A stretch of DNA of 64,000 nt, taken from the NCBI GenBank assembly GCA_964465685.1, contig CAYXKK010000004.1, positions 24,697 through 88,696 on the forward strand, written 5' to 3'. The position numbers and the translations under genes are program-made. Positions within the stretch are counted from its first letter, which is position 1. Each line of letters starts with the position of its first letter. This document shows, piece after piece, positions 8,808-18,828 of this stretch. The notes beneath the pieces are model-generated. The model was not told the origin of the DNA, did no database searches, and was given only the letters and a program-made list of their open reading frames with translations. Source of the stretch: an uncultured Melioribacter sp. Its GTDB lineage: Bacteria > Bacteroidota > Ignavibacteria > Kapaibacteriales > Kapaibacteriaceae.

Positions 8808-10262
8808 TTAATAGCGGTAGTAGTCCGGCTTGTATGGCCCCTTGACTTCGACGCCAATGTACTTGGCTTGCTTGTCGTTGAGCACTTCGAGTTCCACGCC
8901 GATCTTCTTGAGGTGGAGGCGTGCAACCTTTTCGTCGAGCTTCTTAGGAAGCATGTAGACTTCGTTCTTGTAGGCCTTGTGGTTACTCCACAGCTCGAGC
9001 TGTGCGAGTACTTGGTTGGTGAATGAGTTCGACATCACAAATGATGGGTGACCCATTGCGCAGCCGAGGTTCACGAGACGGCCTTCAGCGAGAACGATCA
9101 CGTCCTTCTTGCCGATCGTATAGAGGTCGACCTGTGGCTTGATTTCGACCTTCGACTTGCCGTAGTTCTTATTGAGCCACGCCATATCGATTTCGTTGTC
9201 GAAGTGGCCGATGTTGCAGACAATGGCCTTGTCCTTCATCGCGCGGAAGTGCTTCTCCGAGATGATGTCGCAGTTGCCCGTTGCTGTTACAACGATGTCG
9301 GCTTCCTTGACTGCATCGATCATCTTCTTGACTTCAAATCCGTCCATTGCAGCTTGGAGTGCGCAGATCGGATCAATCTCCGTTACGATCACACGTACGC
9401 CAGCCCCTTGCAACGATGCAGCCGAGCCCTTGCCTACGTCGCCGTAGCCAGCAACAACAGCAACCTTACCAGCAAGCATCACGTCGGTTGCGCGACGGAT
9501 CGCGTCGACGAGTGATTCCTTACAGCCGTACTTGTTGTCGAACTTGCTCTTCGTGACCGAGTCGTTCACGTTGATGGCTGGCATTGGGAGTGTGCCATTC
9601 TTGACGCGCTCGTACAGACGGTGCACGCCTGTTGTTGTCTCTTCCGACAGACCGCGAATTGCTTCGACGAGTTCTGGGTACTTGTCGAGCACCATGTTCG
9701 TGAGGTCGCCACCGTCGTCAAGGATCATGTTGAGTGGCTTGCGATCCTTGCCAAAGAACAGGGTCTGCTCGATGCACCAATCGAATTCCTCTTCGTTCAT
9801 TCCCTTCCACGCAAACACCTGAATGCCCGCCTTTGCGATTGCAGCAGCTGCGTGGTCTTGCGTAGAGAAGATGTTGCAGCTCGACCATGTGACTTCTGCG
9901 CCGAGGTCGACGAGTGTCTCGATCAGCACTGCTGTCTGAATCGTCATGTGAAGGCAGCCTGCGATGCGAGCCCCCTTCAAAGGCTTCTTGCCCTTGTACT
10001 CTTGACGGAGCGACATCAGACCCGGCATCTCGACTTCAGCGAGACGGATCTCCTTGCGACCCCACTCGGCGAGGTCCATGTTCGCTACTGCGTACTGACC
10101 AGCCTTGTGTGCGATCTGACCCTTGGCAACGCGGCCTGGTGTCTTTAGTGCCTTCGACGCTGCTGAGCTCTTGCTCACACCGTTCTTGTGCACGCCATTC
10201 TTATGCACGCCGTTGGTCGACGCGATGGATGTGTTCTTCTTCTTGACGGTCGTTGTAGCCAT
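8808..10262 (-). CDS. ahcY: Adenosylhomocysteinase with an N-terminal Lys/Asn-rich extension containing HKNGV tandem repeats
   Basis: NAD-binding [10 protein letters not shown], catalytic regions, and the C-terminal KPDYYRY tail typical of bacterial SAH hydrolase. Start taken at MATTTVKKK, because the upstream part of the long ORF would overlap metK. Confidence 0.92.
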
Positions 10263-10290
10263 ACGAGGTGTATTGGGAGTGAGAAAGTGA

Positions 10291-11433
10291 TCAGGCAAAG
10301 TTCTTTGTAAACACGTCACGGAGGTCAAGATGTTCCCATGGGAACTCATGACGTCCAAAATGACCATAGGCAGCCGTCGGACGGTAGATCGGACGGCGGA
10401 GATTGAGGCGCTTGATGATGCCAGCTGGCGTAAGGTCGATTTCCTTCCAGATGAAGGATTCGAGCTCCCGCTCGTTGACAGCCGATGTGCCATGCATGTT
10501 CACGTTAATCGATACTGGCTGGGCCACGCCGATGGCGTATGCCAGCTGGATCGTGCACTCGCGTGCAATGCCTGCGGCAACAATGTTCTTGGCGAGGTGG
10601 CGTGCTGCATAGGCAGCCGACCGGTCGACCTTCGTTGGATCCTTGCCCGAGAACGCACCGCCACCGTGTGGTGCGCGACCTCCGTAGGTATCAACGATGA
10701 TTTTACGACCTGTCAGGCCTGTGTCGCCGTGCGGTCCGCCGATTTCAAACACGCCCGTTGGGTTTACGTGATACTTGGTTTCGGCTGTGATGAGGTGCTC
10801 AGGAATGACTGCCTTGACCACATTCTCGATCACGTCTTCCGTGATGCGTGCCTGTGCATTGTTCATTGGGTCGTGCTGAGTCGACACCACGATGGTATCT
10901 ACGCTCACAACTTCGCCGTTGTCTCCATACACCACTGAAACTTGCGCCTTGGCATCCGGACGGAGGTACGGCATCAGGGCCGATTCGTTCTTCCGAATGT
11001 CGGCCAAGCGCTTAACAAGCTTATGCGAGAGGTGAATAGCCGTTGGCATGTACTCGTCGTTTTCGTTCGACGCATAGCCGAACATCATGCCTTGGTCGCC
11101 AGCACCACCTGTGTCAACGCCGGCAGCGATATCAGGTGATTGGCTGTTGATCACGTTCAGCACGGCGCATGAGTCTGCTTCGAAGCGGTACTCGCCGCGA
11201 TCGTAGCCGATCTCGCGAATAACCTTGCGCACGAGCTTTGGTAGATCGATGTAATGTGATGTCGTGATCTCGCCACCTACAACGATCATACCTGTTGTTG
11301 CAAAGCATTCGCATGCTACGCGTCCAGTTGGATCGTTGGCAAGAACTTCATCGAGGACGGCATCAGATACCTGATCGCAAACCTTGTCGGGATGTCCTTC
11401 GGATACCGACTCTGAGGTGAAGATGTACTGCAT
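10291..11433 (-). CDS. metK: S-adenosylmethionine synthetase
   Basis: [28 protein letters not shown] and [10 protein letters not shown] motifs. Confidence 0.96.
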
Positions 11434-14842: not shown

Positions 14843-15580
14843 CTATCGTAAACCTTGCTGTTTCCACGCCTGGATGGTTGCAAGCGTACAGTCGTCCAGT
14901 TTGCCACCGCTTGGTGGCATTGCGGCAAATCCCGCGAGATGAGCCATCGAACCGTAGAGTCTACCAGACGTGGCCATCGTGGCCACAACGGTACGGTCGG
15001 TAAGGTTGATGCCAGCGCTCGGATTCGTGCCACCGTGGCAGCCGGTGCAGGAGCGCTGCATGATGGGCTGGACGTGTGTGGTGTAGGTCACATTTGTCGT
15101 GTCGCAACCCGCACTGTCCTTCGAGCAGTCGCGATTGCGAGCCCCCTCGCGAATCCAGCGGGCAACCAAGACGATCTGTTCCGCCGTGAGCGATCGAGGC
15201 GGTGGAGGCATGATTTCGTCGCGGTCGGTTTCGATGAGCGAGCGGTAGAGTTTCGACTCGGCAGGATTGCCAGGTCGCACGATGCGCTCTTGCCCTTGCA
15301 TGATGGACGTATACGATGTCAGGTCGACGTCTTCTTCAGGGTCGATGGCATCATGGCATTCTGCCATCGTGCAGTTCGAGATGAGTATCGGTAGAATGTC
15401 GCGTGTAAAACACACGGAAGTGTCGCCACCACCACCTGTGGTGTCTGTCGAGCCGCCAGTTGTATCCGTGGTGTAGTCGTCGTCATCTCCACCGCGTGGA
15501 TGAAAGGGTCCATTCACATAGTCTGCGCAGGCAGCTATGCTCATGGTAACCATAGCGAGGAGTACAAAACGACGTAGCAT
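14843..15580 (-). CDS. Lipoprotein with two PSCyt-like cytochrome-c-type modules (one CTGCH haem motif and one C-x4-CH variant)
   Basis: Lipobox LLAMVTMSIAAC. One module is ...QRSCTGCHGG.... A second module, NCTMAECHD, is followed by the MPPPP...AEQIVLVARWIREGA pattern seen in planctomycete-type cytochrome C domains. Confidence 0.5.
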   Translation of the reverse strand: MLRRFVLLAMVTMSIAACADYVNGPFHPRGGDDDDYTTDTTGGSTDTTGGGGDTSVCFTRDILPILISNCTMAECHDAIDPEEDVDLTSYTSIMQGQERIVRPGNPAESKLYRSLIETDRDEIMPPPPRSLTAEQIVLVARWIREGARNRDCSKDSAGCDTTNVTYTTHVQPIMQRSCTGCHGGTNPSAGINLTDRTVVATMATSGRLYGSMAHLAGFAAMPPSGGKLDDCTLATIQAWKQQGLR

Positions 15581-15630
15581 GCTACAAGATACCCTCGCAG
15601 CATGCTACGGTTACACCCACCACCGAAAGC

Positions 15631-16770
15631 TTAGTATCGTAGGATTGCCGCCACGCCAGTGGCTGTAGGCATGGCTTGTGCCGGAAGTACCTGCACGGTA
15701 CCCTTCATGCGCAGCACCATCACCGCCAGATCGTCGAGTACGTCATCGATGTCCGGTTGGCTCAGGTCGTCGAATACGATTTCTCCTGTGACGGGATCGA
15801 TCTTGCCCGGTACTTCGCGTTGGTCTTCAACGAGTAGCGTGTCAATGCGACCCTCTACCGCAGCATGCGCTACCTGCACGATATCTTCGAGTCCGTACCC
15901 ACGCGCGGTGGCATTGCGGTACATTTCGATCAGATTTAGACTGCGCTGCGTGGCAAGTGGCTCGATGATCGACCATGCGCGCTTGGTCATTTCACGTCGT
16001 TCGAGTGCACTTGGATGTGTTGCGATCGCATCAGTGAGGATCTTTTGATTGCGCGTAATGCGACGAAACTCACCGATCAACTCTGTTACGCCGCATAGGA
16101 TCATCGGCAGACCATCCGTGCGTGAGGCACGCTCAAGAACGGTACGATCAACTACACGGAAAAACTTCTCCGTGTCGAGCTCAATCTCATCGGACGTAGT
16201 TGTGTGGCCAACATGACGCTCCGTGCCGCCTGAGTTAGACCGTGTAAACTGGCGCTCTGTGAGCGAATGACCGAGTGCGCGCTCAAGCGTCATCGGTGCG
16301 TCTGGTCCAAGATCAATCTCCTCGATATCGTCATGATCACCCACGTAGAGATGAGCCACATCACGAGTAAGCGCAAGCACGTGATAGCGATCGCTGGTTT
16401 GTAGAAGCTTGAGAAGGGGCTTTACATGAAACGTATCAGCAACGACTGCGAGGTCGCCGACCGGACGATCAACGTGAAAGCGTAGGAACACGTCTGGTGA
16501 TCGAAACACGACGATGCCTTCGGTTCGTGCATTCCAAAACTCTTCGTTGCGCTCGAGATGTTCAAATGGAGCGACGAGTTCAGCAACCATAGCAGGTGAG
16601 TACGCAGTGCTGAGCGAATCGCGAATCTCGCGCACCAGACTTCGATAGCGTGTCGGATCGTCGCGACGTTCCGGTTGCGTACGATGTGTGTTCAGATAGA
16701 GGCTTGCACATGGTGCCTGCTGGTGGTGCAACACTTGTTGGATAACAACATTGAGATCCGTCTTCATCAC
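15631..16770 (-). CDS. eRF1/Pelota-like three-domain protein (candidate bacterial archaeo-eukaryotic release-factor-like, baeRF, family member)
   Basis: 379 aa ending ...MKGTVQVLPAQAMPTATGVAAILRY. This resembles the conserved C-terminal G-x-G/A-A-I-L-R-Y/F element of eRF1/Dom34 domain 3. No other recognisable enzymatic motif. Confidence 0.5.
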   Translation of the reverse strand: MMKTDLNVVIQQVLHHQQAPCASLYLNTHRTQPERRDDPTRYRSLVREIRDSLSTAYSPAMVAELVAPFEHLERNEEFWNARTEGIVVFRSPDVFLRFHVDRPVGDLAVVADTFHVKPLLKLLQTSDRYHVLALTRDVAHLYVGDHDDIEEIDLGPDAPMTLERALGHSLTERQFTRSNSGGTERHVGHTTTSDEIELDTEKFFRVVDRTVLERASRTDGLPMILCGVTELIGEFRRITRNQKILTDAIATHPSALERREMTKRAWSIIEPLATQRSLNLIEMYRNATARGYGLEDIVQVAHAAVEGRIDTLLVEDQREVPGKIDPVTGEIVFDDLSQPDIDDVLDDLAVMVLRMKGTVQVLPAQAMPTATGVAAILRY

Positions 16771-16862
16771 TCTCTCCCTATGGTGAATGTATCGAACGAC
16801 TACTGTTTCAATAATCGAGAGTTCTATCGAAGCGAACTATGACAAACGTCAGGTTTCAACCG

Positions 16863-18086
16863 CTATCGCGACTGAGCACTGAAAATGTTGCCGCTGCGAA
16901 CTGCAATGATGACGCGGCGACGGGATAACGATTGCACGGCATATGTACCGTCGGGCAACGTACTCATTGTTGTACGCAAACAACCTTGAGCGATACATGC
17001 GCCTGTAAGGCTGTATACATCAGCTTGCTCGTCGAGCAGGGGCGATGTTGTGATGTCGGCTTCGACGACGGATGTTGGTTCAGAGATCTGGCGTGCACAA
17101 AAGACCGCAGCAGCACGATCGACCGCGGATTCGTTGTGTATTGCGTGTTCGCCACCCTCATGGATCCACGTCTCGTGCCACGTTGATGGATAGTCGCGTC
17201 GAATGAGTTCTGCCTGTAACGCACAGCTGCCAAAGGTACGCGGGTAGTTTGCTGAAACATCAAACGGTAGACCCCAGTAGCACCTGTTGATACCACACGG
17301 CACAACAGGGTCGTTGCGTTGATGGTAGCTGTACGTGGGAACGAACGCCTTGCCATTGAGAAGGCGAAGATCGAATAACCCGCCGAAGATGTTGATCACA
17401 GCGCGCAGACGAGGAAGCGGCGTTGCTGGGTATGCATGCCCGTCTAGCGAACCAAGGCTCGGACGTGGGAATCGGTCGAATGCGCGCTGCACATCACCAA
17501 TCGCACCAAGCACCGGTGGAAGTTGATCGGAATCATCGAGCAGAGCACAATGCAATGCGAGGATCGCACCTGCACTTCCGCCTCCGATCACAGCGCGTGA
17601 TGTGTCGATGCGATACTGCTGCGCTTGCGTCACGAGAAACTTGAGTCCGGTGCGCACGTCTTGAATGCCACGAAAACACGCGCGGATAACCTCCGCTGTG
17701 TCGTACGCGAAGGGCGGATCAACTGGCCACGGACTGTAAAAGCCAAGTCGGTAGGAGATCGTCACGGCAACATAGCCACGCGCTGCCCAGCGCTCACAGA
17801 CCGCGCGCATATCGGCACGCGAACCTTGTGCGAACCCACCGCCGTGAATCCACATAATCATCGGACGTGACGAAGCGCCATCACCAACAGGCTCCGCGAT
17901 GTCCATGCGCAGTGTATCGACGCCTCCACGAAAATTCCTCGCCTCTGCATAGCGCACGTTCGACGTCCAGCGCGTTGCATAGCGCTGTGCGACGAAGGGT
18001 TGCGCCATGGCCATGCTCGCGGCGCATAACCCAATGATCACGAGGAGAGTGTGAAGCATGTTGTAAACTAGCAGAGTTTCCATCAC
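16863..18086 (-). CDS. Secreted alpha/beta-hydrolase (carboxylesterase/lipase) with a T9SS C-terminal sorting domain
   Basis: Signal peptide, oxyanion-hole HGGGF, nucleophile elbow GGSAG, and a C-terminal DVYSLTGACIAQG...LPDGTYAVQSL...RVIIAVR pattern typical of Por secretion tails. Confidence 0.75.
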   Translation of the reverse strand: MMETLLVYNMLHTLLVIIGLCAASMAMAQPFVAQRYATRWTSNVRYAEARNFRGGVDTLRMDIAEPVGDGASSRPMIMWIHGGGFAQGSRADMRAVCERWAARGYVAVTISYRLGFYSPWPVDPPFAYDTAEVIRACFRGIQDVRTGLKFLVTQAQQYRIDTSRAVIGGGSAGAILALHCALLDDSDQLPPVLGAIGDVQRAFDRFPRPSLGSLDGHAYPATPLPRLRAVINIFGGLFDLRLLNGKAFVPTYSYHQRNDPVVPCGINRCYWGLPFDVSANYPRTFGSCALQAELIRRDYPSTWHETWIHEGGEHAIHNESAVDRAAAVFCARQISEPTSVVEADITTSPLLDEQADVYSLTGACIAQGCLRTTMSTLPDGTYAVQSLSRRRVIIAVRSGNIFSAQSR

Positions 18087-18100
18087 ATCCTACAACTGCC

Positions 18101-18553
18101 ATGATCGTCGATACCCTCGCTTCGCCTATAGCCTTTGCACATCTGCCGTGGTTTGTGCGTGTGCGCGAATTCCTCGCAACGCATGATCTTGATGCCGCAG
18201 AGCCGGGTCGATACGACGTAGATGGCGACCAGTGCTTTGTGATCGTCGCTGACGATGTTCATCGCAACGAGGTTGCATCTCTTGAGGCGCACCGTCAGTA
18301 CATCGATGTGCAGATCGCATTGCACGGATCATTCGACATCATGTGGTCGCCCCTTTCATCATGTGCGCTCGTGTCGAAGCCATACGATGAAGATGCCGAC
18401 ATCGAATTCTACCACGACGTGCCACGTACACGTGTGCATGTTGCCGAAGGCACGGCTGTGGTGTTGTTTCCAGACGATGCGCATGCACCTCAGCCCCCTG
18501 CAGATGCCGTACGAAAGTGTATTTTCAAGGTCCACATTTCGTACATGCAATGA
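18101..18553 (+). CDS. YhcH/YjgK/YiaL (DUF386) family beta-sandwich protein
   Basis: 150 aa in which the DGDQCFVIVADDV...HRQYIDVQIALHGSFDIMW pattern matches the EbgC/TabA-like family. Confidence 0.7.
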   Translation: MIVDTLASPIAFAHLPWFVRVREFLATHDLDAAEPGRYDVDGDQCFVIVADDVHRNEVASLEAHRQYIDVQIALHGSFDIMWSPLSSCALVSKPYDEDADIEFYHDVPRTRVHVAEGTAVVLFPDDAHAPQPPADAVRKCIFKVHISYMQ

Positions 18554-18828
18554 CCAACGACCCAGAGCTCGAGTATTCTCCGCTGACGCAAACGATCTCC
18601 GAACACGATCGTTCGATCGACGTCTACATCTATCGCGAGAAGGGGGGCTCGGATTGGTACCTCGAAGTCGTGGATGATCACGACCACTCATCGGTCTGGG
18701 AAGACTCGTTCCCGTCGGACAAGCAAGCGCTGAACCTTGTGAAGAAGATCATCGCCCAAGAAGGCTTTGCAATCTTCCTCGGTCCGGGTCCGGACGATGA
18801 TGTAGAGATGCCACACAACGAAAGCTAA
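18550..18828 (+). CDS. Small acidic hypothetical protein (92 aa), translationally coupled to the YhcH-family gene by ATGA
   Basis: The ATG at 18550 overlaps the TGA stop of the upstream gene. Very acidic (D/E-rich). No recognisable domain. Confidence 0.45.
   Translation: MTNDPELEYSPLTQTISEHDRSIDVYIYREKGGSDWYLEVVDDHDHSSVWEDSFPSDKQALNLVKKIIAQEGFAIFLGPGPDDDVEMPHNES

Follow-up and report, generated by a model that had tools for sequence, protein, structure and literature searches.

Balon, described in 2024 from Psychrobacter urativorans, plugs the ribosomal A site and keeps ribosomes dormant under stress (PMC10901736). Balon and its homologues share the absence of the NIKS motif, with an extended loop of the N-domain in contact with the decoding centre, as well as the absence of GGQ and an insertion in the EF-Tu-binding C-domain; further features of Balon are a lasso loop around A2602 and a bL27 trap (Helena-Bueno et al, 2024). 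For the non-catalytic baeRF families, a variable loop at the GGQ position has been described, and rRNA-binding arginines have been noted in baeRF proteins (Burroughs and Aravind). An association with HPF/RaiA has been reported both for Balon (PMC10901736) and for baeRF families (Burroughs and Aravind); for Balon, stress-response genes are the typical though not obligatory neighbours, RaiA/HPF being the most frequent. According to a preprint, every genome that carries Balon also encodes RaiA. A Balon homologue from Synechocystis has been located in the A site of hibernating, LrtA-bound 70S ribosomes that do not translate; EF-Tu and translating-ribosome complexes were not seen (bioRxiv 10.64898/2026.07.03.736309). 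The Psychrobacter protein, two mycobacterial proteins (Msmeg1130 and Rv2629) and this one Synechocystis homologue are the experimental anchors of the Balon-type family.

The window (the whole stretch of DNA that was analysed, 64 kb long) carries, as a single copy, a gene for an uncharacterised addition to these experimentally anchored Balon-type hibernation factors. The original prediction had placed a protein of 379 aa at 15631..16770, and this ORF is present on the minus strand, opening with GTG and ending in ...TGVAAILRY, including the C-terminal GVAAILRY element that had been singled out. Its true start lies one codon further in. When the 5' flanks of six genomes were aligned, the GTG at 16770 was not kept (relatives have GTC or AGG there), whereas the ATG at 16767 was invariant, and nearly all of the 120 homologues listed are 378–384 aa long, with the closest ones at 378 aa. 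As the conserved ATG and the homologue lengths fit, we take the CDS, on this comparison of sequences, to be 15631..16767, encoding 378 aa plus stop. All features located below are on the minus strand. The assignment of this CDS as Balon-type (baeRF family 3) draws on the ORF, the conservation of its start and the matches to PF18845, NF052287 and 8RD8_B described next.

The Pfam search that had been proposed as a check returned baeRF_family3 (PF18845; E=2.6e-35, 122.7 bits against a gathering threshold of 31.5 bits), with all model positions (1–168 of 168) aligned to residues 128–308 of the 379-aa ORF. Matches to baeRF families 6, 7, 8 and 11 were weaker. The baeRF_family6 match was strong too (102 bits), which puts the middle domain between two Pfam models. 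Among NCBIfam models, NF052287 (‘AOC03_06830 family ribosome hibernation factor’, where AOC03_06830 is Balon of P. urativorans (PMC10901736)) matched end to end (residues 11–379 vs 2–361 of 361, E=1.7e-47). NF052287 is an equivalog model with a cut-off of 330 bits, and the window protein stays below this cut-off at 162.7 bits. The NCBIfam models for the MSMEG_1130 and Rv2629 hibernation factors gave weak collinear matches (E=4e-5 and 1.6e-3, respectively).

Among PDB sequences, the only convincing match was ribosome-bound Balon, chain B of 8RD8/8RDV/8RDW, with 8RD8_B as the top hit (phmmer, residues 16–379 vs 11–369, collinear); the window protein and Balon are 20% identical. In all three entries this chain is deposited as ‘methyl-accepting chemotaxis protein’. 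Membership of the Balon family has been defined by detectable HMMER homology to P. urativorans Balon and a length of at least 300 aa (PMC10901736), and the window protein has both, with a phmmer E of 1.5e-12, an E of 2.1e-31 when a 40-sequence family profile was compared with Balon, and a length of 378 aa. As a positive control, Balon residues 11–369 were rebuilt from the phmmer alignment. The rebuilt sequence also matched PF18845 best (E=4.7e-30) and scored 499.2 bits on NF052287, which indicates that the window protein belongs to the same Pfam family as Balon but is no equivalog of it.

The same holds for its nearest relatives. Six other, diverse relatives scored 157–197 bits on NF052287, and since they and the window protein all fall below 330 bits, they represent a sister sub-clade rather than the Balon equivalog. 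Sub-clade members share at least 39% identity with the window protein, and every one of them shares 20–26% with Balon. With a shared consensus of PCxSLYxPTHRxxPE...VADSFHVKPL...MPTxTGVAAIxRY, they form, judging by these comparisons, a coherent sister sub-clade of Balon inside baeRF family 3. Sources that name members of this sub-clade at all call them ‘hypothetical protein’.

The family had been described beforehand as rare and poorly characterised, and neither description survived. The family profile retrieved 10,595 clusters at 50% identity with E<=1e-3 (4,302 with E<=1e-30), and a pattern scan of species-representative genomes yielded at least 582 confirmed matching stretches. The phyla among the matches listed include Bacteroidota, Cyanobacteria, Acidobacteriota, Planctomycetota, Verrucomicrobiota, Actinomycetota, Proteobacteria and others. 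Of the named genomes among the matches listed, an uncultured Ignavibacteria MAG comes closest (88% identity), and other close matches are labelled Kapabacteria, Chlorobi or Bacteroidota, which suggests that the window stems from this group. As for characterisation, baeRF family 3 includes Balon itself, a structurally and genetically characterised hibernation factor (PMC10901736).

We built an AlphaFold2 (AF2) model from the 40-sequence alignment (mean pLDDT 88.1, pTM 0.71), in which low confidence is limited to a loop at residues ~166–190 (pLDDT 59–64). The predicted structure is a three-domain aeRF1-like fold resembling ribosome-bound Balon. When it was compared with the PDB using Foldseek, Balon on the ribosome ranked first (8RDW_B, E=2e-23, TM 0.72/0.74), followed by M. 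smegmatis Msmeg1130 (TM 0.73/0.76) and then M. tuberculosis Rv2629 (TM 0.65/0.67); the top matches 8RDW_B, 8RD8_B, 8RDV_B and 8V9J_z had TM values of 0.69–0.76. Matches to aRF1, eRF1 and Pelota/Dom34 were significant (E=1e-13 to 1e-5) with whole-chain TM values of only 0.2–0.5, and the C-domain was matched by 5eo3, 3ir9 and 5dmr. Superposition on Pelota and eRF1, which had been suggested as a test, thus gave significant matches, yet the Balon-type factors were well ahead. Together with the Pfam result, these matches bear out the eRF1/Pelota-like, three-domain, baeRF-type identity put forward in the original prediction, and they clearly set the protein apart from its named counter-case, an unrelated fold with no eRF1-domain match.

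The N-terminal domain (residues ~1–125, 16393..16767), delimited using the AF2 secondary structure, the Balon alignment and a motif scan, is the counterpart of the decoding-centre-binding domain of Balon and aeRF1. NIKS is absent from the protein and from 40/40 family members scanned. The loop T27-H28-R29-T30-Q31-P32 (16672..16689) aligns with T-H-R-E-H-P of Balon (the ‘HP motif’ region), and we infer that the ‘HP motif’ is Balon H27-P28. Across the sub-clade, the T, H, R and P of this T-H-R-x-x-P loop are nearly invariant. In front of the proline, the window protein has Gln, where other members have His, Arg, Phe, Tyr, Ser or Met, with a literal H-P at the aligned position in 5/40 sub-clade members (Q-P in the window protein, H-P in Balon).

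The middle domain, an RNase-H-like release-factor core (residues ~126–290, 15898..16392), was delimited from the Pfam baeRF match region and the AF2 model. It contains the loop at the GGQ position (residues ~166–190, ...RSNSGGTERHVGH..., 16198..16272), placed by the alignment, the low pLDDT and the literature. This loop reads SNSGGTERHVGH (S-G-G-T-E-R-H), so that the Gly-Gly pair is kept without the Gln. No GGQ occurs in the protein, and no Gln is conserved in the aligned column among the 40 members; a GGQ is present in only 2/40, without column conservation, and both the length and the sequence of the loop vary across the family. Assignment as the class-I release factor aeRF1 was rejected, with GGQ and NIKS both absent. 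We consider the flexible loop to be the counterpart of the Balon lasso loop. The helix after it carries two nearly invariant arginines, Arg204 and Arg208, in agreement with the rRNA-binding arginines that Burroughs and Aravind described.

The C-terminal domain, which is like domain 3 of Pelota/eRF1 (residues ~291–378, 15634..15897; AF2, Foldseek C-domain matches and Balon alignment), contains a beta-hairpin insertion at V319–L335 (VPGKIDPVTGEIVFDDL, 15763..15813), supported by the Balon alignment, the AF2 model and the family alignment. It aligns with Balon AAKVDEDAQTLTMADAA, the insertion that contacts EF-Tu(GDP), and is found in 39/40 members. At this position the AF2 model has a strand at residues 320–323 and, on the DSSP line, a short strand at residues 329–330. 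The protein ends in the motif MPTATGVAAILRY (15634..15672), which corresponds to the sub-clade consensus MPTxTGVAAIxRY; the C-terminus of Balon reads ...QPIALVTRY. Of the features of Balon homologues, the window protein thus shows the loss of GGQ and NIKS and the C-domain hairpin, and its aligned N-domain loop, with T-H-R-x-x-P kept, is a candidate for the one that binds the decoding centre.

The gene is preceded by a 92-bp spacer (16771..16862) with a GC content of 41–43%, compared with 55% for the window. About 85–90 nt before the ATG are conserved across six genomes, starting at an invariant CTGACGTTTGTCATA (16838..16852) that contains the palindrome TGAC-N4-GTCA; further upstream the sequence similarity ends, because the upstream genes differ between genomes. 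The second part of the block reads TTGA..CAGTAG...TCGATACAYTCACCA, and an RBS, GGGAGA (16773..16778), precedes the ATG at 16767. From the six-genome alignment, this block (16768..16852) may hold the promoter and 5' UTR, consistent with a dedicated cis-regulatory region of the baeRF3 gene. A scan of the spacer for the sigma-70 consensus gave no match. Judged by eye, Bacteroidota-type -33/-7 motifs in the spacer were unconvincing, as was a TTGA..TACAYT promoter pair, in which the two elements are only 13–14 nt apart. The gene had been credited with its own AT-rich promoter; a putative promoter is made plausible by the conservation, and the AT-richness is only moderate, with no sigma-70 match. 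As CTGACGTTTGTCATA, TGAC-N4-GTCA and GTAGCATGCTAC have no meaningful further copies elsewhere in the window, no regulon is visible within the 64 kb.

Downstream, the 50-bp gap to the gene for a haem (cytochrome c) lipoprotein was confirmed, with the lipoprotein ATG at 15580. Between the baeRF3 stop codon and this gene lies a 37-nt hairpin (15573..15609), recognised from a terminator-like match, from folding and from its presence in six genomes, and it contains the downstream gene's RBS (GAGGG) and ATG. The 86 nt around it fold at -35 kcal/mol (z=-3.75). Across the six genomes, 16 pairs are kept, with two one-sided pair-preserving changes and no compensatory change, and the U-rich tail is not conserved. 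On these sequence features, the hairpin may terminate transcription, control translation of the downstream gene, or do both. Scanning the entire window against Rfam at gathering thresholds gave no match, so neither the 5' block nor the hairpin is a known RNA family.

We surveyed the neighbourhoods of 80 sub-clade loci, identifying HPF/RaiA with a clean HMM (PF02482). An HPF/RaiA ORF was found in 31/80 loci, almost always directly downstream and on the same strand; this linkage connects the sub-clade with hibernation by a line of evidence separate from the homology to Balon. Further neighbours that recurred were MscS-type channels, BrkB/YihY-type membrane proteins and PRC-barrel proteins. At the window locus, the gene order is DUF386 (divergent), esterase, baeRF3 gene, cytochrome c lipoprotein, SLT/LysM transglycosylase and NTP-transferase. 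The locus is syntenic in at least six genomes, on a housekeeping-type stretch of chromosome, with the esterase limited to the window, its 97% relative and some more distant genomes. The clean HMM found no HPF anywhere in the 64-kb window, and neither HPF nor another stress gene is adjacent to the window gene; the HPF link is also absent at the loci of Ignavibacteria/Kapabacteria relatives. Neighbourhood conservation, which had been named as a check, therefore supports the link to hibernation for the sub-clade and does not do so for this locus.

Given the homology, the fold and the presence and absence of motifs established above, the protein probably acts in ribosome hibernation, as an A-site factor of the Balon family that derives from aeRF1 and has no catalytic activity. 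That it binds ribosomes, involves EF-Tu and plays this part in the cell would follow by analogy with what experiments have shown for Balon, Msmeg1130, Rv2629 and the homologue from Synechocystis. As in other family members, the protein would accumulate under stress, in stationary phase or on energy depletion. It would then occupy the A site of 70S ribosomes, where the N-domain loop T27-H28-R29..P32 would touch the decoding centre at a distance from the mRNA channel, a contact that we propose would make binding codon-independent. [quoted passage not shown] The C-domain with its beta-hairpin insert would be turned towards the factor-binding site, where it may hold EF-Tu(GDP); this step may not be general, as the work on the Synechocystis homologue did not show EF-Tu. 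By the same analogy, the ribosome would stay inactive and protected until growth resumes. Residual uncertainty stems from the divergence of the sister sub-clade and from the usual stress-gene context that is missing at the locus.

Other roles were weighed against this one. The protein might be a non-catalytic rescue factor similar to Pelota/Dom34, recognising stalled ribosomes (e.g., on truncated mRNA) and promoting their dissociation rather than their storage. [quoted passage not shown] We nevertheless regard it as improbable, since structural similarity to the Balon-type factors is far higher (TM 0.65–0.76 vs 0.2–0.4) and the HPF linkage in the sub-clade points to storage, not splitting. Moreover, Balon has no Pelota loop A and sits ~10 A from the mRNA channel (PMC10901736). 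Still less credible is catalysis at stop codons or on stalled complexes, with the protein working as an alternative class-I release factor or as a peptidyl-tRNA hydrolase. Its descent from aeRF1 and the Gly-Gly pair that the middle-domain loop keeps at its tip (S-G-G-T) are what such an enzyme would show, and a few baeRF families do retain a conserved Gln (Burroughs and Aravind). Here, however, no Gln follows the Gly-Gly, the loop is variable, the rare GGQ of other members is not conserved by column and NIKS is lacking; besides, the nascent chain is retained on Balon-bound ribosomes (PMC10901736). To our knowledge, bacteria have no Hbs1/ABCE1-type partners with which a Pelota-like factor could work, which also counts against a rescue role.

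The earlier suggestion of a role in conflict systems fared no better: we see very little chance that the protein is a component of phage defence or inter-bacterial conflict that shuts down translation on attack. Some release-factor-like rescue pathways have been linked to conflicts (Burroughs and Aravind), and a few plasmids, five of them from Moraxella, do carry distant relatives. Against this, neither the protein nor the genes on its two sides matched a PADLOC-DB 2.0 model at E<=1, and even distant relatives were found in only 12/72,556 plasmids and 3 unannotated ‘phage’ records. There was no recurrent defence-like neighbour across the 80 loci, and the neighbours at the syntenic chromosomal locus are of housekeeping type. 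A different, and doubtful, variant of the hibernation role is that the sub-clade, with its 20–26% identity to Balon, its scores below the equivalog cut-off, its variable residue at the His of the HP motif and its spread over many phyla, is a functionally distinct branch of A-site factors with other rRNA contacts, and that in Ignavibacteria/Kapabacteria the HPF linkage was lost and the gene became tied through the hairpin to the cytochrome c lipoprotein, a periplasmic protein with CX4CH/CXXCH motifs. If true, this would hint at a coupling of ribosome dormancy to the respiratory or redox state.

For a Balon-type hibernation factor, the locus adds an Ignavibacteria/Kapabacteria-type representative to the family. 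It raises no new question, as the family, the fold and the mode of action have been described since 2019–2024. It does suggest that automatic pipelines may overlook a probable hibernation factor across many phyla, because the sub-clade lies below the cut-off of NCBI's Balon equivalog model.

Comparison with the known systems places the protein as follows. With aRF1/eRF1 and Pelota/Dom34 it shares the three-domain architecture, significant Foldseek matches and a C-terminal strand of the ...GVAAILRY type. It differs in having neither GGQ nor NIKS, in a whole-chain TM of only 0.2–0.5 and in a beta-hairpin that replaces their C-domain insert; homology is not significant in sequence by the family profile, the aRF1 C-domain 3IR9 being a marginal match only (E=0.55). 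Msmeg1130 and Rv2629 (PDB 8V9J/8V9L/8V9K) resemble it in their three-domain fold (TM 0.65–0.76) and in the weak collinear NCBIfam matches, but are far more distant, with no phmmer or profile match against the PDB at E<=1, and carry larger C-domain insertions (Helena-Bueno et al, 2024). Cyanobacterial sub-clade members are 42–44% identical to it among the matches listed. From Balon (AOC03_06830; PDB 8RD8/8RDV/8RDW) it is set apart by the 20% identity, by the NF052287 score (162.7 vs 499 bits), by Gln in place of the His of His-Pro, by a different sequence of the loop at the GGQ position and by a locus without an adjacent RaiA/HPF gene. Yet Balon is its best structural match and belongs to the same Pfam family, baeRF_family3; the two align collinearly over their full length and have in common the loss of GGQ and NIKS, the T-H-R..P loop, the beta-hairpin insert of the C-domain and the ...RY C-terminus.

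The space between the stop codon of the baeRF3 gene and the cytochrome c gene downstream of it holds an invariant 37-nt hairpin (15573..15609, minus strand), in the predicted fold of which the ribosome-binding site (GAGGG) and ATG of the cytochrome c gene are sequestered. As each arm is a near-palindrome in its own right (GYAGCATGCTRC), the two arms could equally be a putative pair of DNA sites for protein binding. A scan of the whole window returned no Rfam match for this hairpin. On the other side of the baeRF3 gene, alignment of six genomes placed an invariant 15-mer, CTGACGTTTGTCATA (16838..16852, minus strand), at the 5' edge of the upstream conserved block. It contains the palindrome TGAC-N4-GTCA and does not occur a second time within the window; it may be a regulator site.

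The cytochrome c gene itself (14843..15580, minus strand; Pfam PSCyt1 and Cytochrome_CBB3) encodes a lipoprotein with the signal peptide MLRRFVLLAMVTMSIAAC and a pair of haem-c motifs: CTMAECH (residues 70–76), of the unusual CX4CH form, followed by CTGCH (residues 178–182), a canonical CXXCH. Both are kept in nine Ignavibacteria/Kapabacteria-type relatives.

Between the baeRF3 gene and the divergent DUF386 gene lies an alpha/beta-hydrolase esterase gene (16863..18086, minus strand; BD-FAE/Abhydrolase_3). Among the loci of relatives that carry a homologous baeRF3 gene, it was found in L087 (97%) and in L002, L004, L006 and L007, as it is in the window, and is missing from L001, L081, L083 and L085, where synteny is otherwise kept; this is a whole-gene indel. 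Since the GTG start of the esterase ORF is only 14 nt from the DUF386 gene, translation probably begins instead at the Met within MLHTLLVIIGLCAASMAMA. The DUF386 gene (18101..18553) is overlapped at its end by an ORF of 103 aa (18517..18828, plus strand), the product of which had no Pfam match. This ORF is kept as an 87–101-aa gene after DUF386 in L001 and L081–L087, and a member from L002 also clusters with the small protein. Elsewhere in the window, the mechanical ORFs for S-adenosylhomocysteine hydrolase (8808..10493) and SAM synthetase (10291..11433), both on the minus strand, have about 200 nt in common. In the former, the Pfam match to AdoHcyase starts only at residue 133, so translation of this gene probably begins a good way downstream of the ATG given for the ORF.

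Across the 80 fetched baeRF3 loci, an HPF/RaiA-type hibernation factor gene (PF02482) was present in 31 (within L010–L075, from many phyla). These short genes, of about 105 aa, almost always come next after the baeRF3 gene on the same strand (for example, 7085..7432 of L070), and L030 has two copies. Other repeated neighbours were MscS channels, BrkB/YihY-like proteins, PRC-barrel proteins and P-type ATPases. Distant baeRF3 relatives (22–24% identity) were found on five Moraxella plasmids (for example, NZ_CP024181.1) and in three short 'phage' records that carry no annotation (OR846628.1, OR848657.1 and PQ520345.1); these records come from Enterococcus and Listeria and may be host fragments. 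For Balon, the ribosome hibernation factor of Psychrobacter urativorans, the PDB sequence file labels chain B (8RD8/8RDV/8RDW) as 'Methyl-accepting chemotaxis protein'. This legacy annotation is misleading and could conceal the match from a name-based search.
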